A stretch of DNA of 64,000 nucleotides, from NCBI GenBank assembly GCA_964429815.1, contig CAYSCM010000001.1, positions 256,001 to 320,000 on the forward strand. The letters run 5' to 3'. Source of the DNA: an uncultured Candidatus Saccharibacteria bacterium (GTDB lineage Bacteria; Patescibacteriota; Minisyncoccia; Phycocordibacterales; CAYSCM01). Below are positions 13,353 through 63,911 of the stretch, piece by piece. The position numbers and the translations under genes were made by a program. Within the stretch, counting starts at the first letter, position 1, and every line of letters begins with the position of its first letter. Under the pieces are notes generated by a model, which ran no database searches, was not told where the DNA came from, and was given only the letters and a program-made list of their open reading frames with translations.

Positions 13353-13373
13353 GCCCACACGCGCGAACCTATT

Positions 13374-13410
13374 CCGCCCGGAAGTCTCGAACCTCCGGGC
13401 GGTTTTCTTT
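13374..13410 (+). terminator. rho-independent terminator
   Basis: CCGCCCGGA..TCCGGGCGG then ttttctttt. Confidence 0.75.
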
Positions 13411-13438
13411 TGACTTTTTATTTTTTTGTGATATTATT
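13410..13438 (+). promoter_or_regulatory. sigma70 promoter (TTGACT-17-TATTAT)
   Basis: TTGACT 13410-13415, TATTAT 13433-13438. Confidence 0.5.
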
Positions 13439-13926: not shown

Positions 13927-13941
13927 CAGATTTTCACCCTT

Positions 13942-13982
13942 CCGCCCGGCAGTCTCGCGACTGCCGGGCGTTTTCTTTTTTA
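13942..13982 (+). terminator. rho-independent terminator
   Basis: CGCCCGGCAGTC-tcgc-GACTGCCGGGCG then ttttctttttt. Confidence 0.8.
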
Positions 13983-14112
13983 TTTGCATATTTTTAGAGG
14001 TTCCTGTAGTGTGTCCCCATTCGCTACGTTCTCTAGGGAATACCCGGTGGGAACCAATGGCAAGAAGGCTCTAAGAGCCCGGCGCCATTGTTGGCGTTTT
14101 TTTGTTTCAACC

Positions 14113-21049: not shown

Positions 21050-21352
21050 ATGAAAATCCACAAAGGCGATAGCGTCATAGTGATTTCCGGCAAGGACCGC
21101 GGCAAAACGGGCAAAGTTCTCCGCGCACTCCCATCCGAACACAAGGTCGTGGTCGAAGGCGTTAACTTGCTCAAGAAGCACCAGCGCCCCACGCAAAACA
21201 ACCAGAAGGGCCAAATCGTCGAGAAAACGATGCCCATCCATGTAAGTAACGTGATGCTCGTCGATGGGAAGGGTAAGCGCACGCGCGCCAGCTTCCGTCA
21301 CGTGGGAGAAAAGAAGCAGCGCTTTGCCAAAACGACGGGAAGTGAAATCTAA
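21050..21352 (+). CDS. rplX: 50S ribosomal protein L24
   Basis: MKIHKGDSVIVISGKDRGKTGKVL KOW motif. Confidence 0.9.
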   Translation: MKIHKGDSVIVISGKDRGKTGKVLRALPSEHKVVVEGVNLLKKHQRPTQNNQKGQIVEKTMPIHVSNVMLVDGKGKRTRASFRHVGEKKQRFAKTTGSEI

Positions 21353-21356
21353 TACC

Positions 21357-21878
21357 ATGCTCGAACTCATCAAAAAACAAAACGATGCGCACAAGGCGCT
21401 CTCCTACAAAAACGTAATGCAGACACCAAAGATCGAGAAGGTCATCGTCTCGATCGGCGTTGGCTCTGTGAAGGACAAGAAAAAATTTGACGTCATAACA
21501 GACCGCCTCGCGAAGATCACGGGCCAAAAGGCCGCTCCGCGCGCCGCCAAGAAATCGATTGCAACCTTTAAGCTGCGCCAGGGGGACGTCGTCGGGTTCC
21601 AAATCACGCTCCGAGGCTCGCGCATGAAGAATTTTCTCGAACGCCTTCTCGCGGTGGCGCTTCCACGTACCCGCGACTTCCGTGGGCTTGATCCTAAGGC
21701 TATCGACGAGATGGGTAACCTCACCATCGGCATTAAGGAGCACACTATTTTCCCTGAAACCTCTGACGAGGATCTCAAGGACGTCTTTGGATTTGCCGTG
21801 ACGGTGGTTACTACCGCCAAAAGTCGCGACGAGGCACTGAAGTATCTCACCTACCTCGGATTTCCTTTCAAGAAATAA
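21357..21878 (+). CDS. rplE: 50S ribosomal protein L5
   Basis: L5 core; start trimmed to MLELIKK. Confidence 0.9.
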   Translation: MLELIKKQNDAHKALSYKNVMQTPKIEKVIVSIGVGSVKDKKKFDVITDRLAKITGQKAAPRAAKKSIATFKLRQGDVVGFQITLRGSRMKNFLERLLAVALPRTRDFRGLDPKAIDEMGNLTIGIKEHTIFPETSDEDLKDVFGFAVTVVTTAKSRDEALKYLTYLGFPFKK

Positions 21879-21949
21879 AAAGCCCTAGCTTTCAGAGCAA
21901 TTTGTATTTTTTGGGCTTCAGCTTAGGTCGAGCTTTCGGACCGGAGCAG

Positions 21950-21979
21950 TTGACAATCTCCACTATTATATAGTATAAT
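21950..21979 (+). promoter_or_regulatory. consensus sigma70 promoter (TTGACA-18-TATAAT) driving DGR target gene
   Basis: TTGACA 21950-21955, TATAAT 21974-21979; ~135-nt leader to AAGGAGGT RBS. Confidence 0.6.
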
Positions 21980-22117
21980 TCTTTCCATAACACTAGTTCC
22001 TTGATTTGGTTTTGCCCTGGCAGGAAGAGCTTTCGTTGAGAGAATTTCCTGCTGTGGCAAAGCCCGTTCGGGCCGAGTCTGAACAGCACTGTAAAAACGC
22101 TCAAAGGAGGTAATCTC

Positions 22118-22759
22118 ATGAGCGAACAACAGATCGCCAAGCTCGCCGGCGCATTGGTGGAGCACCAACGGCATTTCGGTGCCATGCCAACCGAGGATCG
22201 CCAGTGGGCGATCCAGAATACTGAAGCGGCCATCGGTCTATTCGCCGTTGCAGTGAAGAACCGCGACAACGGCCAGACACAGAAACCAAGGACGCTCTTG
22301 AAGTTCGTGGCGAGCGTAAGCATCGCCGCGATCGAAGGCTTCAAAGTCTCCGAGAACTTCGAGGAGGGGAAGTTGGGCCCGGTCAGAATCTATTGGCTCG
22401 GCGACGACTTCAAGAAGCACTTCGGCCGCAAGACCGAGAGCGCTTTGGAAGCAGTCGAGCTGAAGGTTCACACTCTGACCAAGGCTTCGCTCGATGCCCC
22501 GATCATCGCGGAACTCGCGGGCAATGCGGAGATCACGATGGGCCAGTTCTTCGCTCTGCTATCGAAGCAGGGCAAGGGCGAGAGCGGGCCGCTCCTTACG
22601 AACGGCTACGCCAACATCGCCTACATCCGCGACGACGAGGGCGTCCTATGGGCGGTGGACGCCCACTGGCACGCCGGCCGCGGGGGCTGGGACGTCTACG
22701 CCGACTCAGTCGCCTACCCGGGCGAGTGGGACCGGGGTCGCCAGGTTCTTTCCCGCTGA
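22118..22759 (+). CDS. DGR variable (target) protein, 212 aa, VR at C-terminus
   Basis: strong AAGGAGGT RBS; C-terminal 36 codons form VR; no signal peptide visible. Confidence 0.8.
   Translation: MSEQQIAKLAGALVEHQRHFGAMPTEDRQWAIQNTEAAIGLFAVAVKNRDNGQTQKPRTLLKFVASVSIAAIEGFKVSENFEEGKLGPVRIYWLGDDFKKHFGRKTESALEAVELKVHTLTKASLDAPIIAELAGNAEITMGQFFALLSKQGKGESGPLLTNGYANIAYIRDDEGVLWAVDAHWHAGRGGWDVYADSVAYPGEWDRGRQVLSR
22649..22756 (+). repeat. DGR variable repeat (VR)
   Basis: 92/108 identical to TR; all 16 substitutions map to TR adenines (11 AAC and 2 GAC codons). Confidence 0.9.
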
Positions 22760-23097
22760 TTCTCGAACCCTTAAGCCCTCGGCCTGAGATCCTTTGACCC
22801 TCTGAAACTTTGCGAAGCAATTTGCGAAGGAGTAGGAGGGTCTTCTATTTTTTATTTTGATATAGTAAGACGTGAGGAGTGCTACTGATGCGGCGGCTAC
22901 GGCTTCCGCACAGCGCCTCGAGTATCTGTATCGCCAGAATCACGTCGGCTAAGGCTTGCGCGAGAGCGCGTGCAGGTACTCTTAAAAAAGATAAAGAATC
23001 GGTGCCTCATGCTGGCGGACTTCAAGGTCCCACATACGATACAGCTCGGAGAGTATTCGATGGGTGGTGTTATTGATGGCTTAAGGCACACAACGGA

Positions 23098-23206
23098 TGG
23101 GCGGTGAACGCCAACTGGAACGCCGACAACGGGGGCTGGAACGTCAACGCCAACTCAGTCGACAACCCGAACGAGTGGAACCGGGGTAACCAGGTTCTTT
23201 CCCGCT
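23098..23206 (+). repeat. DGR template repeat (TR), 11 AAC codons
   Basis: TGGGCGGTGAACGCCAACTGGAACGCCGACAACGGGGGCTGGAACGTCAACGCCAACTCAGTCGACAACCCGAACGAGTGGAACCGGGGTAACCAGGTTCTTTCCCGCT. Confidence 0.9.
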
Positions 23207-23570
23207 ATTCTTTTCTTCCCCCGCCCTTCGGCGGGGTTTTGCTTTCGAGGCCCCTCTTCCATCCCCCAACCATCCGACCCAGTTCGTGCACTTTTTCCGA
23301 GAGAGCAGCATACCTCTTTGTGTCAAGCGCGCGCAGCTCCCATGCGACTCGTAAAAGGAATTTCGCGGTGTCTATTTTTTTGAGTGTGTGAAAAAGTGTC
23401 GGCACTTTTTCACCCGAGCCCTGATAACTTGCGGTGAAGAGAAGTTCCAGCGTGTCTATGAGCGAAAAGTCGATGCGCTCACCGAGTGTATACCGGGCGT
23501 TTTTTGGAAAGTTGTTCCTGCACTCATGCCAGATTTTATATACTGCAACAGCATGTTCAATAACCGGCAA
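23205..23570 (-). CDS. avd: Avd-like accessory variability determinant (four-helix-bundle / 23S rRNA IVS protein family)
   Basis: 121 aa, basic; FPKNARYTLGERIDFSLIDTLE motif resembles FPKxExYxLxxQxxRAxxS of PF05635; stop codon abuts TR end; opposite strand to TR/RT. Confidence 0.6.
   Translation of the reverse strand: MPVIEHAVAVYKIWHECRNNFPKNARYTLGERIDFSLIDTLELLFTASYQGSGEKVPTLFHTLKKIDTAKFLLRVAWELRALDTKRYAALSEKVHELGRMVGGWKRGLESKTPPKGGGRKE
23218..23246 (+). terminator. GC hairpin plus T-run immediately 3' of TR
   Basis: CCCGCC-cttc-GGCGGG then gttttgcttt. Confidence 0.5.
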
Positions 23571-23590
23571 AAGTCGTTGGGGGGGTCGCT

Positions 23591-24592
23591 TTGAGGTCGC
23601 AACTCGCTCATACGTATGACGATATCATCTCGCTAGAAAATCTCCTTGCCGCATGGCAGGAATTCGTGCGCGGGAAGCGCAAAAAATGCGACGTGCAAGA
23701 GTTTCAGTTTCGGCTCGTGGACAATATTCTTGAGCTCTACCGTGACTTGAAAGAGAAAACATACACGCATGGGCCGTACCACCCTTTTAAAATAAGCGAC
23801 CCTAAACCCCGCGACATCCACAAGGCGAGCGTACGCGACCGGCTCCTCCACCACGCAATATATCGGAAACTCTATCCATTCTTCGACAAAATTTTCATTG
23901 CCGATTCGTACTCATGCAGGAAAGGCAAAGGAACACACAAGGCGATGAACCGTTTTCGTTCCTTTGCATACAAGGCGAGCTTAAATCACACAAAAACGCT
24001 TTGGGTGCTCAAGTGCGACATCAAAAAGTTCTTTGCATCAGTCGATCAGCATGTTCTCCTGGAGATTATTAGGCGCTGCATTTCTGACACCGACATCCTC
24101 TGGCTCATCGAGCGAGTCGTGCAGAGTTTCAATCCCAGCAGGGAGGGCACGGGTCTCCCGCTCGGCAATCTCACCTCGCAGCTTTTAGTGAATGTGTATA
24201 TGAACGAGTTTGACCAGTTTGTGAAGCGCACCCTCAAAGCGAAATACTACATCCGTTACGCCGATGATTTTGTGATTTTCTCGCAAGATGCGAAATGGCT
24301 CCAACAAATATGCAAATATATCAGCATATTCTTACGTGAACGGCTGAAACTCGAATTGCACCCTAATAAAGTATCGATCACAACGCTCGCATCCGGTATC
24401 GATTTTCTCGGCTGGGTGAATTTTCCTGATCATCGCGTGCTACGCACCTCGACAAAGCGGCGGATGTTGAAGCGAATGACTGGTGAGCAATCTAAAGAGA
24501 TCATCAAACCGTATTTAGGGCTTCTTCAACATGGGAACAGCAAAAAGCTGCAATTGAAAATCTTGTTTGACACAGCAGAGGCAATCAAGTAA
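23591..24592 (+). CDS. DGR-type reverse transcriptase
   Basis: 333 aa; [20 protein letters not shown] (DGR [ILV]GxxxSQ in place of group II QGxxxSP), [14 protein letters not shown] box. Confidence 0.9.
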
Positions 24593-24734
24593 GCTCATCC
24601 CACAAAGCCGAGTAGGGCTTTTCTTTTGGCAAGTGCTAAACCGTCTACGCGGTCGCATACTCCCAGAAGAAAGGGAAGAATACTTCTCTTTTTTCACTCC
24701 ACACGTGGGGGATTGCCAGAAGTTCGTATACCAC

Positions 24735-24920
24735 ATGGCAAAAACCTCAGTCATCGTTCGAAGCAAACGAAAGCCCAAGTTTAAGTCTCGGGTTGTTCGT
24801 CGCTGTTTCAAGTGCGGACGCAAGCGCAGCTACATGCGCGACTTTGACCTGTGCCGCATCTGCTTCCGCGAACTCGCGAACGAAGGCATGATCCCGGGCA
24901 TTAAGAAAAGCTCCTGGTAA
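24735..24920 (+). CDS. rpsN: 30S ribosomal protein S14 type Z (zinc-binding)
   Basis: 61 aa, CFKCGRK...CRIC zinc ribbon. Confidence 0.9.
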
Positions 24921-24925
24921 TTTCC

Positions 24926-25309
24926 ATGTTGATCACTGACCCAGTCGGAGATTTCATAGTGCGCCTCAAGAACGCGACCGACGCGGGACGCTCGTCGACG
25001 ACGGCGCCCTACAGCAAGCTGAGAGCCGCTATCGCGGAGAGTCTCAAGGGCCGCGGCTTCATCAAGAGCTACGACAAACGCGGCAAGAAGGCGAAAAAGG
25101 TCATCGAAATCGAACTCATCCCTGAGAAGATCCAAGGCGTCGCGCGCGTCAGCAAGCCGGGCCGCCGCCTCTACATTCGCGTCAACGAGATCAAGGCCGT
25201 CCGTTCCGGACAAGGAGCACTCGTGCTTTCGACCCCGAAGGGAATTCTCACCGATCGCGAAGCCCGCAAAGAAAACGTCGGCGGCGAAGCGCTCTTCAAA
25301 ATCTGGTAA
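24926..25309 (+). CDS. rpsH: 30S ribosomal protein S8
   Basis: MLITDPVGDFIVRLKNA S8. Confidence 0.95.
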   Translation: MLITDPVGDFIVRLKNATDAGRSSTTAPYSKLRAAIAESLKGRGFIKSYDKRGKKAKKVIEIELIPEKIQGVARVSKPGRRLYIRVNEIKAVRSGQGALVLSTPKGILTDREARKENVGGEALFKIW

Positions 25310-48183: not shown

Positions 48184-48204
48184 CCTTCAATTATAAGGCG
48201 AGCT

Positions 48205-48288
48205 ACTCTGGATTCAGAAAACCGTCGTCAATCCCCATAAGGGTATTTTAGCGCTTCTAAAGACGACTTGTTGAGGCTCTCAGGTCGC
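48205..48288. repeat. intergenic repeat family, copy A
   Basis: shares ggattca..tcaatcccc..gggtatttt..gacttgttgaggc.ctc.ggtcg with copies B and C. Confidence 0.5.
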
Positions 48289-48656
48289 TAAGATTTATGC
48301 ACCGCTTCAAGATTGTGGCCGTTGGGGTCAATTACAAACGCAGCAAAATATCCAGGCTCATAATCGCGCAGGCCGGGAGCACCATTATCAGTCGCGCCAC
48401 GGGTAAGTGCAATTTTGTAAAATTCCTCAACGGCCTGCCTGCTCTTTGCGGTCAGGGCTATGTGTACGGATTTTGAAAGGGGCATGTCCACTCCGGCCTG
48501 GCTTATTTCGAGCATGTCGTGAGGGTTAGACCCAAAGCCAACTACGACACCTTCAATTTCAAATACGACATTGTACCCGAGTGCCCCAAGTACCGCTTCG
48601 TAAAACAAGCGGTTCTTTGCGAAATCTGTTACTTTAATTTGTACGTGGTCAAACAT
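48288..48656 (-). CDS. VOC/glyoxalase family protein
   Basis: MFDHVQIKVTDFAKNRLFYEAVLG glyoxalase pattern. Confidence 0.7.
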   Translation of the reverse strand: MFDHVQIKVTDFAKNRLFYEAVLGALGYNVVFEIEGVVVGFGSNPHDMLEISQAGVDMPLSKSVHIALTAKSRQAVEEFYKIALTRGATDNGAPGLRDYEPGYFAAFVIDPNGHNLEAVHKS

Positions 48657-48685
48657 ACTTACATTATAGTCGAGTGTTGATACCC

Positions 48686-48803
48686 GGATCTGTCCGATAC
48701 AAAAGTCTTCGGGCGGGCCGCTCGGGATTCAAACTTTTAAGCTCAATAAACACGAGGGTATTTTTGGCCCATCTTGGTGCAATCTGTTGAGGCCTTCGAG
48801 TCG
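48686..48803. repeat. intergenic repeat family, copy B (contains both sub-motifs)
   Basis: ggatctgtccgatacaaaag..cgggcgg + ctcgggattcaaacttttaagctcaat..gggtattttt..ctgttgaggccttcgagtcgc. Confidence 0.5.
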
Positions 48804-48863
48804 CAAAGGTTTCTTTGGGATTATCCGAATTGAACTCCGGGAAGATCCTTTCGACGTAACCTG

Positions 48864-49553
48864 CTACCATTGTCCGAGATCAAGAACCGGCTTGCCGATA
48901 ACCGCGTTTTGTGCGACGGTCCAAGTGGAGGTTGCGGACGGATTGTCCTTGGAAAGATACCACTCGCCGCTCTGAATTGTCGTTCCGTTTATTATTTCAC
49001 CAGGAACGCCAATAACCCGAGCGATGATATTGTGCGAACTTTGGCCAGAACCAACTCTGGCAAGAATGATATCGCCTTTTTGTACGGAGCGATCATATTT
49101 TTCAATTATGAGATATTCATTTGCCGGATAAGTTGGCGCCATCGAATCCCCGCTCATCAGAAAAGGTTCGAGGAGAAAACCCCGAAAAGCTACAATGATT
49201 ATAATCGCAAACAACCAGAACGCGACAGAGCCGGTGAGGAGGGCAGGTAAAAATTTCCAGAAGGTGACGGCAAAATATTTCCGATACAGAAAATACGCAA
49301 CAGCGTAGAAAACTAAAGTTATCGAGAGCTTAAAGATGCCTGCTCCAAGCCAGAAAACCAGCACGCCCACGATGGCTGACGCGACTGTGGAAAGAAAAAG
49401 AATTATTGCAACGCGCCCAAAAGTGCTTGTTTTGATCCCATACAATTTATTTGCCAAATTCACAAACTCGATGCTACCAATGAAAAACAGTCCGCCAACA
49501 ATCAGTATGGGCACAAGAATAGTAAGACTCATGTTAAGATTATACCTTTCCAA
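48864..49553 (-). CDS. lepB: signal peptidase I with extended N-terminal TM region
   Basis: SGDSMAPTY catalytic Ser box, ...GDNR-like region. Confidence 0.75.
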   Translation of the reverse strand: MERYNLNMSLTILVPILIVGGLFFIGSIEFVNLANKLYGIKTSTFGRVAIILFLSTVASAIVGVLVFWLGAGIFKLSITLVFYAVAYFLYRKYFAVTFWKFLPALLTGSVAFWLFAIIIIVAFRGFLLEPFLMSGDSMAPTYPANEYLIIEKYDRSVQKGDIILARVGSGQSSHNIIARVIGVPGEIINGTTIQSGEWYLSKDNPSATSTWTVAQNAVIGKPVLDLGQW

Positions 49554-49584
49554 AAAGGTTACTTACATTGTTCACTCAAACCCT

Positions 49585-49680
49585 CAGGTCTACCGATAAA
49601 AAGTTGTCAATGCGGAGAGGGCCGGTCTAGAACTCGGCCTCGTCAAGCAGTGTAAGGGTTTCTTGGCAACTTGGCGACCA
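49585..49680. repeat. intergenic repeat family, copy E
   Basis: caggtctaccgataaaaagttgtcaatgcggagagggccggtctag matches copies B/D sub-motif 1. Confidence 0.45.
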
Positions 49681-49721
49681 CGCGTTTTCAGGGAGAACGG
49701 TCGGGAGCTGTTGAATGCGAC

Positions 49722-50294
49722 CTAATGTAATCTCTTACCAGATCGCATCATCGCGAGAAGTACTTCCATACGGCGAGCTCTCGTTTCTAGCCTTTTAGCC
49801 GTTTGGAGTCTCCACGCAATCGCGTAGGTATTCACACGATTGAGTGACTTGAAAAAATCGTAAGCCTTCGGATCTTTTTTTACCGCTTCAACAAAATCCG
49901 CGGGGACCTCCGCCGTACTCCCGACGTCATAGGCTCGATCCCATCGGCCATCCTTTTTTGCCGCGTCTATCTCCCTCTTCCCAGCAGCGGTCATGCGGCC
50001 TTCTTTAAGTAGACGAAGGACGTGCTCGCGATTCCGCTTCGACCACATGCTTTGTGGACGGCGTGGCGTAAATTTTTGCAAGAATGAACCGGCATCATAG
50101 GCCTTCTTTTGCCCGTCAATCCATCCATAACAAAGCGCTTCATCGAGGGCTTCATCATAGGTTGCGGATTTGTGGCCGGAACCTTTTTTGTAAATACGGA
50201 GCCAAACACCTTCCGAACGCGAGTAATGCTTTGAAAGCCACGAACGCCAACTCGCAGCCATAGCAAACAATTTGATCGGAATTTTTTTCGCCAT
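49722..50294 (-). CDS. YdeI/OmpD-associated family protein
   Basis: pattern typical of PF13376 (LRIYKKGSG..., YAIAWRLQTAKR). Confidence 0.55.
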   Translation of the reverse strand: MAKKIPIKLFAMAASWRSWLSKHYSRSEGVWLRIYKKGSGHKSATYDEALDEALCYGWIDGQKKAYDAGSFLQKFTPRRPQSMWSKRNREHVLRLLKEGRMTAAGKREIDAAKKDGRWDRAYDVGSTAEVPADFVEAVKKDPKAYDFFKSLNRVNTYAIAWRLQTAKRLETRARRMEVLLAMMRSGKRLH

Positions 50295-50310
50295 GAGCCA
50301 AACGTTTTGC

Positions 50311-50398
50311 GGGCCACTCGGGATTCAACTTTTAGAGGTCAATCCCCGCAAGAGTATTTTGGTGGATTCAATGCCGACTTGTTGAGGCACTCGGGTCG
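50311..50398. repeat. intergenic repeat family, copy C
   Basis: gggccactcgggattcaacttttagaggtcaatccccgcaagagtattttgg..gacttgttgaggcactcgggtcgg. Confidence 0.5.
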
Positions 50399-50436
50399 GA
50401 GTCTATAAAGCAGTGGGCTTACTAAATTGCCTGAGG

Positions 50437-51051
50437 CTACCTGGCATCTGTTTTGATCATTTTAACGATTTCCGGGAATCGCTCGATGTTGAAATGTCCG
50501 TTTTTGCTCTTGAAGATAGTTATTTGCGCAGTTGGAAGTTTTGCTCGATATTTTTCTGCGTGCGCGACTGGGACAACATCGTCATCTTTCGAGAACAGAA
50601 GGTAAAGATTCTTACAGTTCTGCTGAATCATCGAAAGGTTTTTCTTAAGCTCAAAGCCTCCGGCTAGCCTGTCGCCTGGCATGTCGTCGTCAAACGGAGG
50701 ACATACGAGATATATCGAAATTGCTTTCTTGGACAGTTTGTTTTCAGAAAGATATTTAGCGAGGAAAATGCCACCGAGAGAGCCACCAATGAGAATGAAA
50801 GGTCGTCTAAGGAGCAGGAGATAATTCTCGAACATAATCTTCCAATCACGATACTGCGAATTGTCCTGCAGCGGCATTCGTGGAATCGTCACAACAAACT
50901 TGGCGCCCAGATCTTTTTGGAGATTATCGCTGTTCCAGCGGATCCGTTTACCCAGCGTTACCTTCTTAGTTTTAAGATATTTGACATATTCCTTGTCGGA
51001 CACAAAAGTATTGCCACCATGGATATAGAGGACATCTATTTTCCTTTTCAT
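50437..51051 (-). CDS. alpha/beta hydrolase (YdeN/RBBP9-like serine hydrolase)
   Basis: GGSLGG nucleophile elbow; AT-richer than flanks. Confidence 0.6.
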   Translation of the reverse strand: MKRKIDVLYIHGGNTFVSDKEYVKYLKTKKVTLGKRIRWNSDNLQKDLGAKFVVTIPRMPLQDNSQYRDWKIMFENYLLLLRRPFILIGGSLGGIFLAKYLSENKLSKKAISIYLVCPPFDDDMPGDRLAGGFELKKNLSMIQQNCKNLYLLFSKDDDVVPVAHAEKYRAKLPTAQITIFKSKNGHFNIERFPEIVKMIKTDAR

Positions 51052-51087
51052 ATTAGAACTATAGCAATAATGAGGGCCAAGATCTTC

Positions 51088-51150
51088 GGGTCTGTCCGAT
51101 AATAAAGTTTTCGGGCGGAGAGGGTGGGATTAGGTCACAAGTATTTTTCT
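51088..51150. repeat. intergenic repeat family, copy D
   Basis: gggtctgtccgataataaagttttcgggcggagagggtgggattaggtcacaagtattttt. Confidence 0.45.
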
Positions 51151-59482: not shown

Positions 59483-59977
59483 ATGTTTACAAGAACTACT
59501 ACATCCAAAGGCTTCACCCTCATCGAGCTCCTCGTGGTCATCGCCATCATCGGCATACTCTCCTCGGTCGTCCTTGCTTCGCTTTCGACCGCTCGTGCCA
59601 AGAGCCGTGATGCAGCACGTGTCGCATCGCTCAAGGAAATGGCGAAATCCATTGCGCTTGCGGACGCAGACCCCGCTCCTGCACTTACGACCTGCACGGC
59701 AGCCGGCGCCAAGGCGAACACCTGCAATGGTCCCTCACCGGTCAACTTCGCAAGCTACTGCGACCCAACAGCCGGTTGTGGCGGCACAGCGTGTACGACG
59801 ACCAATGGCTCGGCTTGTCAGTATGCGATAGGCAAGGCAACCCTCGCAACGGCCAACCCAACCACCCAAAGTTGGGAGATCTGTATCTTCCTCGAAACCG
59901 GCGCAGGTTCGCTGAGTTCGGGTATGGTCCATTCCGGCTCCGATACCGGCGGCGGCGTCGTAGCGACCTGCAACTAG
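59483..59977 (+). CDS. type IV pilin (copy 1)
   Basis: KGFTLIELLVVIAIIGIL prepilin N-terminal methylation motif; Cys-rich C-terminal region. Confidence 0.85.
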   Translation: MFTRTTTSKGFTLIELLVVIAIIGILSSVVLASLSTARAKSRDAARVASLKEMAKSIALADADPAPALTTCTAAGAKANTCNGPSPVNFASYCDPTAGCGGTACTTTNGSACQYAIGKATLATANPTTQSWEICIFLETGAGSLSSGMVHSGSDTGGGVVATCN

Positions 59978-60051
59978 CCTCTATTTCTCACGAAATATCG
60001 AAATCCCCAGCGGTCGCTGGGGATTTCGCTTTATAGCGCTATACTTTTCCT

Positions 60052-60543
60052 ATGAGAAAACCCTATCGCCGCGGCTTCACCCTCATCGAGCTCCTCGTGG
60101 TCATCGCCATCATCGGCATACTCTCCTCGGTCGTCCTTGCTTCGCTTTCGACCGCTCGTGCCAAGAGCCGTGATGCAGCACGTGTCGCATCGCTCAAGGA
60201 AATGGCGAAATCCATTGCGCTTGCGGACGCAGACCCCGCTCCTGCACTTACGACCTGCACGGCAGCCGGCGCCAAGGCGAACACCTGCAATGGTCCCTCA
60301 CCGGTCAACTTCGCAAGCTACTGCGACCCAACAGCCGGTTGTGGCGGCACAGCGTGTACGACGACCAATGGCTCGGCTTGTCAGTATGCGATAGGACTCT
60401 CCTCGGCAATTGGGACCGGTGGCGCGACCACGCAGAATTACCAAATATGTACGTGGCTTGAGACCGGGGCCGGCTCACTTACACAGGGTCCGGTGAGCGT
60501 GCGAAGCGACACAGGAGGTGGCGTCGTGCAAAATTGCATCTAA
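60052..60543 (+). CDS. type IV pilin (copy 2); 5' ~350 nt identical to copy 1, divergent 3' end
   Basis: first ~118 aa identical to copy 1; ORF track shows identical antisense ORFs 59574..59831 and 60137..60394. Confidence 0.85.
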   Translation: MRKPYRRGFTLIELLVVIAIIGILSSVVLASLSTARAKSRDAARVASLKEMAKSIALADADPAPALTTCTAAGAKANTCNGPSPVNFASYCDPTAGCGGTACTTTNGSACQYAIGLSSAIGTGGATTQNYQICTWLETGAGSLTQGPVSVRSDTGGGVVQNCI

Positions 60544-60593
60544 ATCCCCAAGTTCTTGGAATTTGTTGTCGGGAGTGGATATATACTTAGTGT

Positions 60594-61103
60594 ATGAAAG
60601 AGTGCATGAAAGAGAAGCGCGGCTTCACCCTCATCGAGCTCCTCGTGGTCATCGCCATCATCGGCATACTCTCCTCGGTCGTCCTTGCTTCGCTCCAAAC
60701 TGCGCGCGCCAAGAGCCGTGACGCTAAGCGCATATCCGACCTGCGCCAGGTACAACTTGCGCTCGAGCTCTACTATGACGTCAATCGGGCATATCCATCG
60801 GCCATCACGACGGCGACCCTCGTGACCCCCGGCTACATCCCTTCGATACCCACGGACCCGACGACAGGCGTTTCGTATAAGTATTCGGTGCGCAATGCCA
60901 CCTGCACCAGCTATCACCTCGGCGCGGACCTCGAACAGACGAGCAATATCGCGCTCAACAACGACTCCGACGCAACGGCCGTCGCCGCAACGAGCGCCAC
61001 GTGCCCCGACGCATCCGTGACGACGAGCGACTTCAGTGGTGGATTCCCGACATGCTCTGCGACCTCGGGTACTCCTGACGGTTGTTATGATCTAACGCCG
61101 TAG
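60594..61103 (+). CDS. type IV pilin (copy 3); shares only the prepilin N-terminus with copies 1/2
   Basis: RGFTLIELLVVIAIIGILSSVVLASL then divergent. Confidence 0.85.
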   Translation: MKECMKEKRGFTLIELLVVIAIIGILSSVVLASLQTARAKSRDAKRISDLRQVQLALELYYDVNRAYPSAITTATLVTPGYIPSIPTDPTTGVSYKYSVRNATCTSYHLGADLEQTSNIALNNDSDATAVAATSATCPDASVTTSDFSGGFPTCSATSGTPDGCYDLTP

Positions 61104-61169
61104 CGTGCAAGGGAAAACCCGCGCCCGCTCTCAGCGGGGCCCGGTTTCTTTCGCGTTATACTAAGATGA

Positions 61170-61946
61170 ATGGCTCTTATCGGTATTGGCGCGTTCATGC
61201 TCGGAACCATCATCGGCAGTTTCCTTAACGTCGTCGTCCTCCGGCTTGGCTCGGGGCGCTCCGTGACGGGGCGCAGCGCCTGCCTTTCCTGTGGGACGAC
61301 GCTTGAAGCCGTCGATCTCGTTCCTATCCTCTCCTATCTTTTTCTTCGCGGCCGGTGCCGTCGCTGCGGGAGTCGCATGTCAGCCCAGTACCCGCTCGTC
61401 GAGCTTGCGACCGGCATATTGTTTCTCCTCGTCGCACTCCTCCCTTTTTCGCCCTATGAGATGATCTATCTTGCTATCCTCGTGTCCCTTCTTGTCGCCA
61501 TTGCCGCCTATGACATCAGGCACAAAATAGTACCCGATGTGCTCGTCTATCCGTTTATCGCACTTGCCCTCCTCCATGCCGCATTCGCCGCGTTCATCTT
61601 CATTCCCGCCACACCCTTTGCTCTCTATGTAGTCTCCGGATTTTCCTTCGCGCTACCCCTTGTCCTTATCTGGTATCTTTCTCATGGCCGCGCGATGGGG
61701 CTAGGTGACGGGAAGCTCGCGCTCGGACTGGGCTTCATGCTCGGTCCCATCGGGACCATCTCGGCATTCGTCTTTTCATTTTGGAGCGGCGCGCTTGTTG
61801 GGGTTGCGCTCATCGCTATTCAGCGCGTTGCTTTGCGGGCGAGGGGCAAGGCTCTTACAATGAAAAGCGAGATTCCCTTCGCCCCCTTCCTCATCTTCGG
61901 GGCGATGCTCGTAAAGCTCCTGGGAGTCGAGCTGCCGCTTTTTTAA
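61170..61946 (+). CDS. pilD: prepilin peptidase (A24 family)
   Basis: N-terminal CxxC..CxxC zinc motif and DUF/peptidase A24 TM core. Confidence 0.85.
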   Translation: MALIGIGAFMLGTIIGSFLNVVVLRLGSGRSVTGRSACLSCGTTLEAVDLVPILSYLFLRGRCRRCGSRMSAQYPLVELATGILFLLVALLPFSPYEMIYLAILVSLLVAIAAYDIRHKIVPDVLVYPFIALALLHAAFAAFIFIPATPFALYVVSGFSFALPLVLIWYLSHGRAMGLGDGKLALGLGFMLGPIGTISAFVFSFWSGALVGVALIAIQRVALRARGKALTMKSEIPFAPFLIFGAMLVKLLGVELPLF

Positions 61947-61956
61947 TCCCTACTCC

Positions 61957-62697
61957 ATGCACCCTAGAGACGACCACGCTCGATACCCTAAGGGCTTTAC
62001 GCTCGTGGAACTTCTCGTTACGGTCTCTATTCTCGTCGTCATCACTGCTATCATACTCGTGAGCCAAAACCGCTTTGGCGGTCAAATAACTCTCACGAAC
62101 CTTGCATACTCCCTGGCACTTTCCATTCGGCAAGCTCAAACGTACGGACTCGCTGTACGTGAGGTGAACTCCGGAAGCGGAAACTTCTCCGCTGCGTTCG
62201 GCGTCCACTTCGACCCCGCGACGCCGTCCCAGTACATCATCTTCGCGGATCTCGACGGCAACGGTCGCTACACAGACTCAAGCGAGAACTATTCGTTCAT
62301 CAGGATAACGAGCGGCGGCAAGATATCTTCCGTGTGCGGCGTGCTCGCCAATGCCACCAACAAGTGCAACCCCGACATTTCAACCCTCGATATCGTCTTC
62401 AAGCGCCCCAATCCCGACGCGCTCATCAAGAGTAATGTCCTCACCGACACCTATGGCGGCGCCAAAATAGTCCTCACCTCGCCGCAAGGGGATACCCGCT
62501 ACGTCTATGTTGCCGCGACCGGTCAGATCTCGGTCCAGCAGGCCGCCACGACGCTCTATACGCAGGCCTCCTACTATGCGCAGGGGTACTACCAGTCCTC
62601 CTACTACAGCCAGAGCTACTACCAGAGCACTTACTACAGCCAGGGCTACTACCAGAGTTACTACGAGAGTTCCTATCAACCCGGTTATGCATTCTAA
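61957..62697 (+). CDS. pseudopilin/minor pilin with C-terminal Tyr/Ser/Gln-rich repeat ending GYAF
   Basis: KGFTLVELLV prepilin motif; C-terminus ASYYAQGYYQSSYYSQSYYQSTYYSQGYYQSYYESSYQPGYAF. Confidence 0.75.
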   Translation: MHPRDDHARYPKGFTLVELLVTVSILVVITAIILVSQNRFGGQITLTNLAYSLALSIRQAQTYGLAVREVNSGSGNFSAAFGVHFDPATPSQYIIFADLDGNGRYTDSSENYSFIRITSGGKISSVCGVLANATNKCNPDISTLDIVFKRPNPDALIKSNVLTDTYGGAKIVLTSPQGDTRYVYVAATGQISVQQAATTLYTQASYYAQGYYQSSYYSQSYYQSTYYSQGYYQSYYESSYQPGYAF

Positions 62698-62710
62698 GTA
62701 TTTCGCGACA

Positions 62711-63292
62711 ATGAAGAGGGACGAAAAGCTTCGCGACGGCGGCTTCACGCTCATCGAGATCCTTGTCGCCATCACCATTTTTGCAATCGTCATGATGATC
62801 GCGGTCGCAGCACTTCTTGCTCTCGTCGACGGCTCTCGAAAAGCGCAAGCGCTCGAGTCGGTCATGAACAACCTCAACTTTGCGCTCGAGAACATGACGC
62901 GCTCCATCCGCGTTGGGACGCTCTATCACTGTCAGACGACGAACACCCCCTCATCAAACCTTCAGACCCCTCAAGACTGCACGACCGGTGGCGTACTCCT
63001 CGCGTTCGAAGGGGCAACGGGGGATACAACCACGAACAGCGACCAGATCATTTACCGCCTTAATGGGGCTCAGCTTGAGCGCAGTACCGATGGCGGTGGC
63101 ACCTTCATTGCCATTACGGCTCCTGAAGTCAATATCCAAAGTTTTGCATTTTACGTGAGCGGCACCACACGGGGGGACGGACAGCAGCCCAGAGTCCTCA
63201 TGACCATACGCGGCATTGCCGGCGTCTCCCCGAAGGTACAAACTCCTTTCTATCTGGAGTCCATGGCTTCCCAGCGCCTTCTCGACCTTTAA
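62711..63292 (+). CDS. pseudopilin (GspH/FimT-like)
   Basis: GGFTLIEILVAITIFAIVMM prepilin motif. Confidence 0.7.
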   Translation: MKRDEKLRDGGFTLIEILVAITIFAIVMMIAVAALLALVDGSRKAQALESVMNNLNFALENMTRSIRVGTLYHCQTTNTPSSNLQTPQDCTTGGVLLAFEGATGDTTTNSDQIIYRLNGAQLERSTDGGGTFIAITAPEVNIQSFAFYVSGTTRGDGQQPRVLMTIRGIAGVSPKVQTPFYLESMASQRLLDL

Positions 63293-63293
63293 T

Positions 63294-63911
63294 ATGGCCT
63301 CTTTCCAGAGAAAAACCGGATTTACCCTCATTGAGACGCTTGTCGCCATCTCAGTCCTTCTCGTGTCGATCGCGGGACCGCTCACCATCGCTTCTAAGAG
63401 CCTCACCTCCGCCCTTTTCGCCCGCGATCAGGTAACCTCTTTCTACCTCGCGCAAGAGGGCATCGAATTCGTCCGTAATTGGCGCGACAACAATGCGCTC
63501 GCGAGTGCGGCTTGGCTCACGGGGCTTAGCAACTGCATCTCACCGAATGTCTGTTCGGTCGATCCGAAAAATAACCTCATCGTTGCCTGCGCCGGAGGTG
63601 TGTGTCCCGCGCTCAAGTACGACAGTGCTTCCGGTTTTTACAACACTCAAACTGGTGCCAACTCTATATTTACCCGCACTATTAAGTTAACCCAGATAAC
63701 CGCCGATGAGTACGCGATTTCATCAAAAATTTCGTGGACCTCGGGGCTTTTTCCCAAGACCTTTCAGGTACGCGATAACATTTACAATTGGGCGGGCACC
63801 GCCGTCTACGCGCAAGGAGCCTACTACAGCCAAGGCACCTACTATAGCCAGGGCACTTACTACAGCCAGGGCTACTACCAGAGTACCTATCAGTCAGGGT
63901 ACGCGTTCTAA
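63294..63911 (+). CDS. pseudopilin with C-terminal YYSQG repeats ending GYAF
   Basis: TGFTLIETLVAISVLLV prepilin motif; C-terminus AQGAYYSQGTYYSQGTYYSQGYYQSTYQSGYAF. Confidence 0.75.
   Translation: MASFQRKTGFTLIETLVAISVLLVSIAGPLTIASKSLTSALFARDQVTSFYLAQEGIEFVRNWRDNNALASAAWLTGLSNCISPNVCSVDPKNNLIVACAGGVCPALKYDSASGFYNTQTGANSIFTRTIKLTQITADEYAISSKISWTSGLFPKTFQVRDNIYNWAGTAVYAQGAYYSQGTYYSQGTYYSQGYYQSTYQSGYAF

Follow-up and report, generated by a model that had tools for sequence, protein, structure and literature searches.

The question raised by this locus was how a diversity-generating retroelement (DGR) delimits its template RNA when the accessory gene avd lies on the opposite strand and stops at the very edge of the template. 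The locus belongs to an uncultured Candidatus Saccharibacteria bacterium and was studied in a stretch of 64,000 nt (contig CAYSCM010000001.1, positions 256,001 to 320,000 of the forward strand), which is called the window below. An earlier note on this DNA, made from the letters alone, had pointed to the orientation of avd, to the position of its stop codon and to a hairpin within its 3' coding region. It was concluded that the DGR is of the type found in candidate phyla radiation (CPR) bacteria and has the standard CPR cassette order. Based on the comparison of related loci, the end of its avd gene overlaps a conserved stem-loop and U-tract, at which a discrete template RNA most likely ends.

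The window contained a complete DGR, in which the target gene with its variable repeat (VR) was followed by the template repeat (TR), by avd on the minus strand and by the reverse transcriptase (RT) gene (positions are those of the window):

22118 to 22759, plus strand: DGR target gene of 213 aa that carries the VR at its 3' end, no Pfam or NCBIfam match
22648 to 22757, plus strand: VR, from repeat alignment
23097 to 23206, plus strand: TR, from repeat alignment
23205 to 23570, minus strand: avd, 121 aa, Pfam bAvd; residues 108-121 are encoded opposite the U-tract, hairpin and linker described below
23591 to 24592, plus strand: DGR RT, 333 aa, from RVT_1 and sequence motifs

The VR and the TR formed a 110-nt direct repeat of 85% identity. 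All internal mismatches (16/16) were found at TR adenines and affected the first or second position of codons in the target frame. The final 17 nt, CCAGGTTCTTTCCCGCT, were identical between the two repeats, resembled an initiation of mutagenic homing (IMH) element and were unique within the window. The VR terminated at the stop codon of the target gene (TGA, 22757-22759). DGR-type RTs carry [I/L]GxxxSQ in place of the QGxxxSP of group II introns, plus YxDD. The RT product matched RVT_1 with 92.4 bits, and the motifs LGNLTSQ and YADD were seen in its translation. The profile libraries used were Pfam and NCBIfam, a DGR-specific RT hidden Markov model (HMM) not being among them; the NCBIfam retron RT profiles matched the RT weakly, under their cut-offs, and the nearest RT relatives were the RTs of cassettes with identical make-up. 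Inspection of the reading frames left no further-upstream start for either the avd or the RT open reading frame (ORF), so an upstream extension of avd was excluded by sequence. The search of the whole window found no second avd or RT, and hence no co-directional avd elsewhere. In two related loci a single TR was accompanied by two adenine-biased VR copies, i.e. two targets (579-705 and 3841-3967 in L034; 4015-4123 and 6657-6765 in L065).

Two sets of related loci were collected. A scan of one genome per species gave 80 loci (the genome set) with RTs 61-71% identical to that of the window; their titles were mostly Patescibacteria or CPR, some reading 'bacterium' only or bearing other taxon names. 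An independent scan of metagenome contigs gave a further 80 loci (the metagenome set), which were unused in building any model. The avd gene was on the minus strand immediately upstream of RT in all 76 genome loci having upstream DNA, and on the minus strand upstream of RT in 69 of 70 metagenome loci. An adenine-biased TR, abutting the avd stop, was placed in 62 genome loci. This layout has been catalogued as architecture B3, TR-(avd)-RT with parentheses denoting the reverse strand, and was reported for 90% of the DGRs from CPR, the CPR set being that of Paul et al. 2017 (Wu et al. 2017/2018, NAR, PMC5758913). The window cassette was identical to B3 in order and orientation, with no difference at the cassette level. 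The antisense position of avd relative to TR and RT, which the earlier note had read correctly and which the window coordinates confirmed, is thus the published norm for CPR DGRs and not new; the unusualness implied for it did not hold.

The ORF taken for an avd-like gene encodes a basic protein (pI 9.67, 21 K+R versus 14 D+E) from a TTG start and proved to be an Avd homologue. The HMM comparison proposed for it gave a divided answer. Pfam bAvd (PF22296) matched residues 12-107 with 52.8 bits, above the cut-off of 40, and NCBIfam DivGenRetAVD (NF033474) matched over the full length (E = 1.5e-20) with 73.4 bits, under the cut-off of 80, a near miss such as would be expected of a divergent CPR member. 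A profile of 45 Avd relatives searched against the PDB gave a single weak full-length match, the Avd of Bordetella phage (4DWL, Bbp7; E = 0.84), and a single-sequence phmmer search of the PDB retrieved no Avd structure. An AlphaFold single-sequence model of low confidence (pLDDT, the predicted local distance difference test, 58) was all-helical with an unstructured tail at residues 111-121. The four-helix bundle named in the earlier note is a candidate fold.

The avd stop codon TAG was the complement of CTA at 23205-23207, whose C and T closed the stretch of identity between TR and VR. Opposite the A at 23207 stood the G of the target TGA, and the homology of the two repeats stopped one base on. 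The stop was thus placed correctly at the TR boundary by the earlier note, with the target TGA at the matching VR position. Any special meaning of the exact coincidence was not borne out by the comparison. The same two-base overlap (+1) occurred in 5/62 genome loci and recurred in L002, L003, L014 and L021. The TR end relative to the lowest base of the avd stop codon was mostly between -48 and +9 nt, with a mode of -7; the stop most commonly lay ~7 nt past the TR, within the linker, and inside the hairpin in ~20 loci. On these alignments, the coincidence is one variant of a tight convergent junction and not special.

Immediately 3' of the TR on the plus strand, the following elements were found:

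23207 to 23218, plus strand: polypyrimidine linker, in which ATTCTTT (23207-23213) is the 3' strand of a long-range duplex
23219 to 23236, plus strand: 7-bp GC stem with a CUUC tetraloop, the terminal stem-loop of the proposed TR RNA, which matches in position the Avd-binding stem-loop of the Bordetella phage DGR RNA
23237 to 23246, plus strand: U-tract TTTTGCTTTC, the proposed 3' end of the TR RNA

The GC hairpin with a T-run, which the earlier note had placed in the avd 3' coding region, was thus recovered at 23219-23246, directly 3' of the linker. It sat within the last 14 codons of avd, and its stem began 12 nt after the TR. The hairpin CCCCGCC-CTTC-GGCGGGG followed by TTTTGCTTTC was terminator-like on the plus strand only in the terminator scan. 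Its folding energy was -15.5 kcal/mol (z = -3.6), and 0/200 shuffles were as stable. The complement on the minus strand folded with -17.4 kcal/mol and was followed by the purine-rich GAAGAAAAGAAT with no T-run.

A per-locus hairpin finder detected a stem in 58/62 loci, or 55/62 in another count, ~13 nt after the TR. The stems were of 5-14 bp (mostly 7-10) with loops of 3-8 nt, often tetraloops such as UUCG or UUUG, and a T-run, typically TTTTGTTTTG, followed in 52/62 loci. The stem sequences differed among loci. The first three stem pairs (C-G, U-A, C-G) were nearly invariant, the stem base CUC...GAG and the U-tract were conserved in sequence across the family, and so was the pyrimidine linker between TR and stem (consensus CTCTCTTCATTT). 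A covariance model of linker, hairpin and T-run (R1) was built on 53 loci. In 68 loci of the genome set it matched once, on the plus strand and at the corresponding site, and it gave a single other match in 786 kb on both strands; only one case, L006, had a match beside a VR. In the 80 independent metagenome loci it gave 55 matches, all on the plus strand and at the expected place. The number of alignment cells with double changes was 116 versus 38 ± 6 in shuffled controls for the genome set and 85 versus 29 ± 5 for the metagenome set, values reached by 0/500 shuffles in either case. In the genome-set alignment 85% of cells were paired, compared with 37-63% when the partners were slid. The support for the hairpin rests on de novo per-sequence detection and on explicit pair counts. 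Since covariation was found in two independent sets and R1 was specific, the hairpin is, as judged from the alignments, a selected structure. It is also suitably placed for either or both of the roles suggested for it by the earlier note, setting the 3' end of the TR RNA or acting as the structural hairpin of the DGR.

The overlap of this element with avd was further examined in the protein. The conserved Avd domain ended in ...G(K/R)M(L/V)GGW-x-x-(Q/G)-L, and the codons that followed were the complement of the U-tract. Where avd read through, the U-tract was in frame 1, 2 or 0 in 17, 13 and 4 loci, respectively, and the resulting tails varied between loci (KQNSPAKAGEK, SKTPPKGGGRKE and others). 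The nucleotide motif was kept across three avd frames with a movable stop, which means that the element is under selection as RNA or DNA. The tail of Avd (residues 108-121 in the window) is then a by-product of translating through a conserved element; it is short, variable and basic, and probably disordered.

The region 5' of the TR was conserved at the nucleotide level as well. The spacer between VR and TR measured 258-464 nt in 60 loci (median 339). In the window it contained:

22796 to 22857, plus strand: nested hairpin (22796-22842) with a T-run, a terminator-like end of the target gene that precedes the promoter of the TR RNA (z = -2.8)
22858 to 22866, plus strand: extended -10 motif TGATATAGT, the proposed TR RNA promoter
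22940 to 22963, plus strand: P0 hairpin of the TR RNA leader, weak in the window and covarying in the family
22984 to 22999, plus strand: A-tract (22984-22989) and the 5' strand of the duplex, AAAGAAT (22993-22999)
23002 to 23089, plus strand: core domain, formed by P1 (23002-23013 with 23078-23089), P2 (23017-23020 with 23027-23030) and P3 (23044-23051 with 23058-23065)

The motif TGnTAnnnT was found 225-260 nt upstream of the TR in ~38/60 loci, where a few percent would be expected by chance; in the window the extended -10 motif lay ~236 nt upstream. A GC hairpin with a T-run that ends the target gene commonly preceded the motif, and at the equivalent place it was clearer in many related loci than in the window.

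RNAalifold, applied to a plain MAFFT alignment of the 183 nt ending just inside the TR (56 loci), predicted 32 pairs, 29 of them with compensatory changes. Pairing was kept in 94.2% of cells versus 37-54% in slid controls, and 478 double-change cells were counted versus 143 ± 13 after shuffling (0/500). A model of the core (R2; 109 positions, 23 pairs) matched 61/80 independent metagenome loci at 40-113 bits, 58 of them at full length with 57-113 bits; with one exception, the matches were plus-strand ones immediately upstream of the TR. The covariation was repeated in that set (340 versus 92 ± 10; 0/500). The whole window gave one R2 match, at 22984-23092, with 97.5 bits. No Rfam family was matched between 21500 and 25000 at E <= 1 except for one chance CRISPR-repeat match. 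A partial copy of the 5' RNA domain was also seen on the minus strand of L104 (1535-1608), downstream of RT at the contig end, which suggests a second, inverted TR-RNA unit there.

The A-rich strand before P1 was complementary to the linker 3' of the TR, ~210 nt away, and both strands co-varied. In the window AAAGAAU (22993-22999) would pair with AUUCUUU (23207-23213). The corresponding strands were AAAUGAAGA/UCUUCAUUU in L006, L024 and L071, AAGUGAG/CUCACUU in L070, AAAUAAAGA/UCUUUAUUU in L041, AACGAAGA/UCUUCGUU in L016 and AAGAAGGA/UCCUUCUU in L035. An unrestricted RNAduplex search (100 nt upstream of the TR against 220 nt downstream of the hairpin) was non-specific, giving equal values for cognate, non-cognate and shuffled partners. 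The long-range pairing was therefore measured as contiguous complementarity on defined segments. Cognate strands formed 6.3 contiguous Watson-Crick pairs, compared with 5.1 for non-cognate strands (p = 2e-8) and 4.6 for shuffled linkers. The duplex would enclose P1-P3 and the TR and abut the terminal stem-loop. Between its 5' strand and P1 stand a nearly invariant A and U, which are candidates for the priming nucleotide.

Taken together, the comparison of the loci established which elements are conserved and covarying and in what order they stand. On its 5' side the TR has a conserved extended -10 promoter, as judged by consensus, and a structured leader of ~220 nt; on its 3' side stand the 12-nt pyrimidine linker, then the covarying stem-loop and the U-tract. 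By their covariation, the linker pairs with the A-rich strand and so closes the leader core and the TR into one domain.

The start of avd (23570) and the TTG start of RT (23591) were divergent and 20 nt apart, close to the ~20 bp read from the sequence before. This gap held one further feature:

23580 to 23586, no strand assigned: G7 homopolymer in the 20-nt gap between avd and RT

The G7 was separated from the avd start by 8 nt and from the RT TTG by 4 nt (TCGC). A poly-G of at least 6 (G6-G14, mode G10) occupied the gap in 70/75 genome loci. Counted from the start codon of avd, it usually began at 6-11 nt; the spacing to the RT start varied. Of the other five, L026 had (GT)9, three had (CTGG)12, (CT)n or (GA)n, and L007 had no tract. 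In the metagenome set 59 of 69 loci had poly-G, 3 had (GT)n, 2 had (AG)n and 5 had none. The tract was directly followed by TAnnnT in 27/100 loci, and in 19 of these 27 the start codon stood exactly 7 nt on (17 ATG, 2 GTG), a spacing that suits a leaderless RT mRNA. In this class the avd start and the hexamer kept 16-19 nt apart, since longer tracts went with a shorter non-G part (r = -0.53, n = 19). One pair of loci with 400 nt of identical flanks differed in tract length (G11 in L066 versus G10 in L148); five further identical-flank pairs had equal tracts, and some of these five may share a sample or an assembly.

Some phase-variable promoters have a repeat tract as part of their spacer, such as the poly-C of Bordetella fim genes and the poly-G of Neisseria. 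The DGR gap resembled them in having G7-G14, (GT)n, (AG)n, (CT)n or (CTGG)n at a fixed place between divergent genes and, in one class, a tract that directly precedes a -10-like hexamer with a spacer of 16-19 nt. The window differed from them, since its subclass has G7 at Shine-Dalgarno distance from the RT TTG and not ahead of a -10 hexamer; switching here is only a candidate. One additional contig bore this exact RT (L081) and carried the identical G7; it ended short of the VR. The locus is also present in the Logan run SRR12313479. As a lead from these sequences, it is possible that the tract sits in a promoter spacer and is a phase-variation switch for RT and avd. The literature search found no paper that links DGRs to such repeat tracts.

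Based on these results, we proposed that the TR would be made as a discrete non-coding RNA of ~375 nt, from ~22873 to ~23246, with its start a few bases past the -10 motif and both ends placed by inference. Rho-independent termination would take place at the stem-loop with the U-tract, and once the RNA is released the same stem-loop would probably bind Avd, as in the DGR RNA of Bordetella phage. The 5' leader would replace the 3' spacer (Sp) of the Bordetella RNA as the scaffold that holds the RT. The helical domain of Avd ends at GGW, where the U-tract begins, and the ORF reads on until a stop occurs, which in the window lies across the edge of the TR by chance. If transcription of the TR stopped at the hairpin, avd would also be spared an antisense transcript, and avd and RT would be expressed divergently from the 20-nt G-tract gap. 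On the minus strand the terminator scan found no terminator-like site after the avd stop, from 23205 to 22760, and transcription of avd may therefore continue in antisense through the TR and the 5' domain. Such transcription across the TR could matter for regulation.

The proposed RNA was compared with known systems. In the cryo-electron microscopy structure of the Bordetella bRT-Avd-RNA complex, Avd is bound by a stem-loop directly 3' of the TR, whose 11-bp stem carries a UNCG loop (Sp 3-33), the TR is bracketed by a duplex of Sp 59-70 with 11 upstream nt (avd 369-379), and a priming adenosine and a long RT-binding stem-loop lie further 3' (bioRxiv 10.1101/2023.10.23.563531). The same study predicted putative Avd-binding stem-loops 3' of the TR in 207/278 Avd-containing DGRs, CPR included, in a fold survey that spanned 40 nt upstream and 100 nt downstream of the TR. 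The window DGR and that of Bordetella phage BPP-1 (mtd-avd-TR-brt; Handa et al. 2018, PMC6182149) share the adenine-specific transfer from TR to VR, the pair of Avd and RT, a stem-loop directly 3' of the TR and a duplex of upstream and downstream strands bracketing it. They differ in that the Bordetella avd is co-directional and upstream of the TR, leaving a 140-nt 3' spacer with the priming adenosine and the RT-binding stem-loop, whereas avd in the window is antisense and occupies that space. Since avd fills it on the opposite strand, a CPR template RNA cannot use a Bordetella-style 3' spacer. Further, in the CPR family the U-tract follows the stem-loop directly, the 3' strand of the duplex precedes the stem-loop while that of Bordetella comes after it, and a large covarying domain stands 5' of the TR, beyond the 40 nt of the published survey.

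Measured against an Avd-binding stem-loop (~9-11 bp, a tetraloop, just 3' of the TR), the window element agreed in location and tetraloop and had a stem of 7 bp. The further 3' spacer elements were not found here: the U-tract came at once, and RNAalifold predicted 0 consensus pairs in the 170 nt past it, which are antisense to avd. The form of a Rho-independent terminator, a GC stem-loop with an immediate U-tract at the end of a promoter-led unit, was present. With its 7-bp GC stem (-15.5 kcal/mol), tetraloop and U-tract, the element was like the Rho-independent terminators that are overlapped by a convergent coding region. Unlike plain terminators, it had a stem base and a U-tract conserved in sequence and a linker that joins a long-range helix, and these point to a role beyond termination. 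The msr-msd RNA of retrons has its structured non-coding part 5' of the template, and complementary flanks join the RNA ends. The proposed RNA was like it (PMC8867640) in the structured 5' part and in the flanking strands that close the RNA; it differed in that no sign of a branched priming guanosine was seen here and in that the product would be a homing cDNA, not msDNA.

Several observations weigh against a discrete, terminated RNA. The promoter and the terminator were inferred from consensus and conservation. In the window the stem is 7 bp, below the family mode of 9, the long-range duplex is only 7 bp, and P1 has two mismatches. RNAalifold predicted no pairs on the gap-rich hairpin alignment fitted with R1, in which the loop columns are rich in gaps. 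As it thus also missed the hairpin itself, its silence downstream of the U-tract is weak evidence. If termination at the hairpin were efficient, RT would need its own promoter, and none was convincing in the window: the scan for sigma-70 promoters of RT or avd gave one weak site inside avd, and reading of the sequence gave nothing convincing. Additionally, the functional RNA of Bordetella phage extends ~105 nt past the equivalent stem-loop (bioRxiv 10.1101/2023.10.23.563531), so the stem-loop and U-tract here could be purely structural, with the A-tract and the U-tract pairing. A rival explanation, which we regard as unlikely, limits the hairpin to Avd binding within a long DGR RNA that runs into RT; the avd antisense would serve as Sp, and the U-tract would pair with the A-tract and not terminate. 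It would account for the stem-loop in the solved Bordetella ribonucleoprotein and its prediction in 207/278 DGRs, for a conserved A6 upstream of the long-range strand, for first three stem pairs that are unusually invariant for a generic terminator and for the failure to find an independent RT promoter in the window. It fits less well with the canonical terminator form of a GC stem plus TTTTGTTTTG in a genome rich in such terminators (45 terminator-like sites in 20 kb versus 22 ± 5 after shuffling, with several 12/12 promoters too) or with 170 nt downstream lacking consensus structure, the strongly covarying scaffold being on the 5' side of the TR. In 27/100 loci a -10-like hexamer belongs to RT itself, with the start codon exactly 7 nt on in 19, and an RNA that reads through would cover the avd mRNA entirely in antisense.

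A function of the hairpin on the minus strand or as DNA was considered very improbable. It could be the terminator of avd, a bidirectional terminator or a DNA cruciform for target recognition like the inverted repeat at the Bordetella VR; its minus-strand complement forms an equally good fold (-17.4 kcal/mol), shared terminators are frequent between convergent genes, and GC-rich inverted repeats are a known DGR feature. However, the avd stop lies mostly downstream of the hairpin on the minus strand, and termination there would leave avd mRNAs without a stop codon; moreover, the purine-rich GAAGAAAAGAAT that follows has no T-run. In Bordetella the inverted repeat stands beside the VR and is missing at the TR, whereas the window hairpin flanks the TR, and the one R1 match at a VR flank was that in L006. 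That the stop coincidence and the hairpin are functionless accidents of a compact genome, with the ORF merely abutting the TR, is scarcely credible. CPR genomes are indeed compact and the avd stop does vary in position between loci. Against such an accident stand the covariation of the hairpin in two independent sets, the nucleotide conservation of U-tract and linker across three reading frames, the covariation of the linker with a strand ~210 nt away and the specificity of R1 (one extra match in 786 kb). Nor were the alignments near-identical, the RTs being 61-71% identical to that of the window.

The surroundings of the DGR were also surveyed (21264-25309). The cassette (~21880-24730) was inserted into a ribosomal protein cluster, between rplX-rplE (L24, L5) and rpsN-rpsH (S14, S8), and the G+C content of avd and RT was ~47% versus ~57% in the flanks. 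L5, L24, S8 or L6 was found within 5 kb in 0/80 related genome loci, which ruled out the ribosomal-operon site as typical of the clade. Two further features flank the cassette genes:

21950 to 21979, plus strand: sigma-70-like promoter TTGACA-18-TATAAT (12/12), upstream of the target gene and right after rplE
24604 to 24621, plus strand: terminator-like hairpin with a T-run after RT and before rpsN, from the terminator scan

Elsewhere in the window, two similar strong terminator-like hairpins with T-runs (family D9) were found 568 nt apart, at 13372-13427 and 13940-13995, the first being followed by a promoter-like site at 13410-13437. A 45-60-nt repeat in three to four copies (families D6, D8 and D10) lay between minus-strand ORFs at 48198-51131. 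Tandem paralogous ORFs at 59483-63911 shared a repeated 5' segment, GGCTTCACCCTCATCGAGCTCCTCGTGGTCATCGCCAT, which encodes GFTLIELLVVIA and, by reading, resembles the N-terminus of a type IV pilin or pseudopilin. Periodic repeats of 12-18 nt, rich in TAC and CAG (Tyr/Gln/Ser), occurred at 62562-62675 and 63812-63889.

What the earlier note described was confirmed in all details, and its interpretation was in substance supported. The antisense avd layout by itself changes nothing, as it is the normal CPR DGR cassette. A stem-loop 3' of the TR was already a known DGR element, and the DGR of the window is one more CPR example. No description of the promoter, the 5' leader, the duplex, the overlap of terminator and avd or the repeat tract was found in the literature searched, Paul et al. 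2017 lying outside it. For the DGR clade that is both the largest and the least studied, the comparison gives the template RNA concrete, testable boundaries and a structure. Four features, namely the overlap of avd with the terminator, an RNA from promoter to terminator, the 5' scaffold with its clamp and the repeat tract, are well supported by the two sequence sets and still form a model. It is conceivable, and is put forward tentatively, that the CPR template RNA as a whole is unlike that of Bordetella: ~375 nt long, with its own promoter, a 5' scaffold, a clamp and a dual stem-loop overprinted by avd, and with RT and avd gated by a hypermutable tract. If true, the model would explain how a DGR functions with an antisense avd, and ~22873-23246 would be the minimal RNA for in vitro reconstitution of a CPR DGR or for compact diversifiers. 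It would also provide a clear case in which a protein owes its tail to a reading frame that runs on through a terminator. If the tract is phase-variable, hypermutation itself would be switched on and off stochastically in these reduced genomes.

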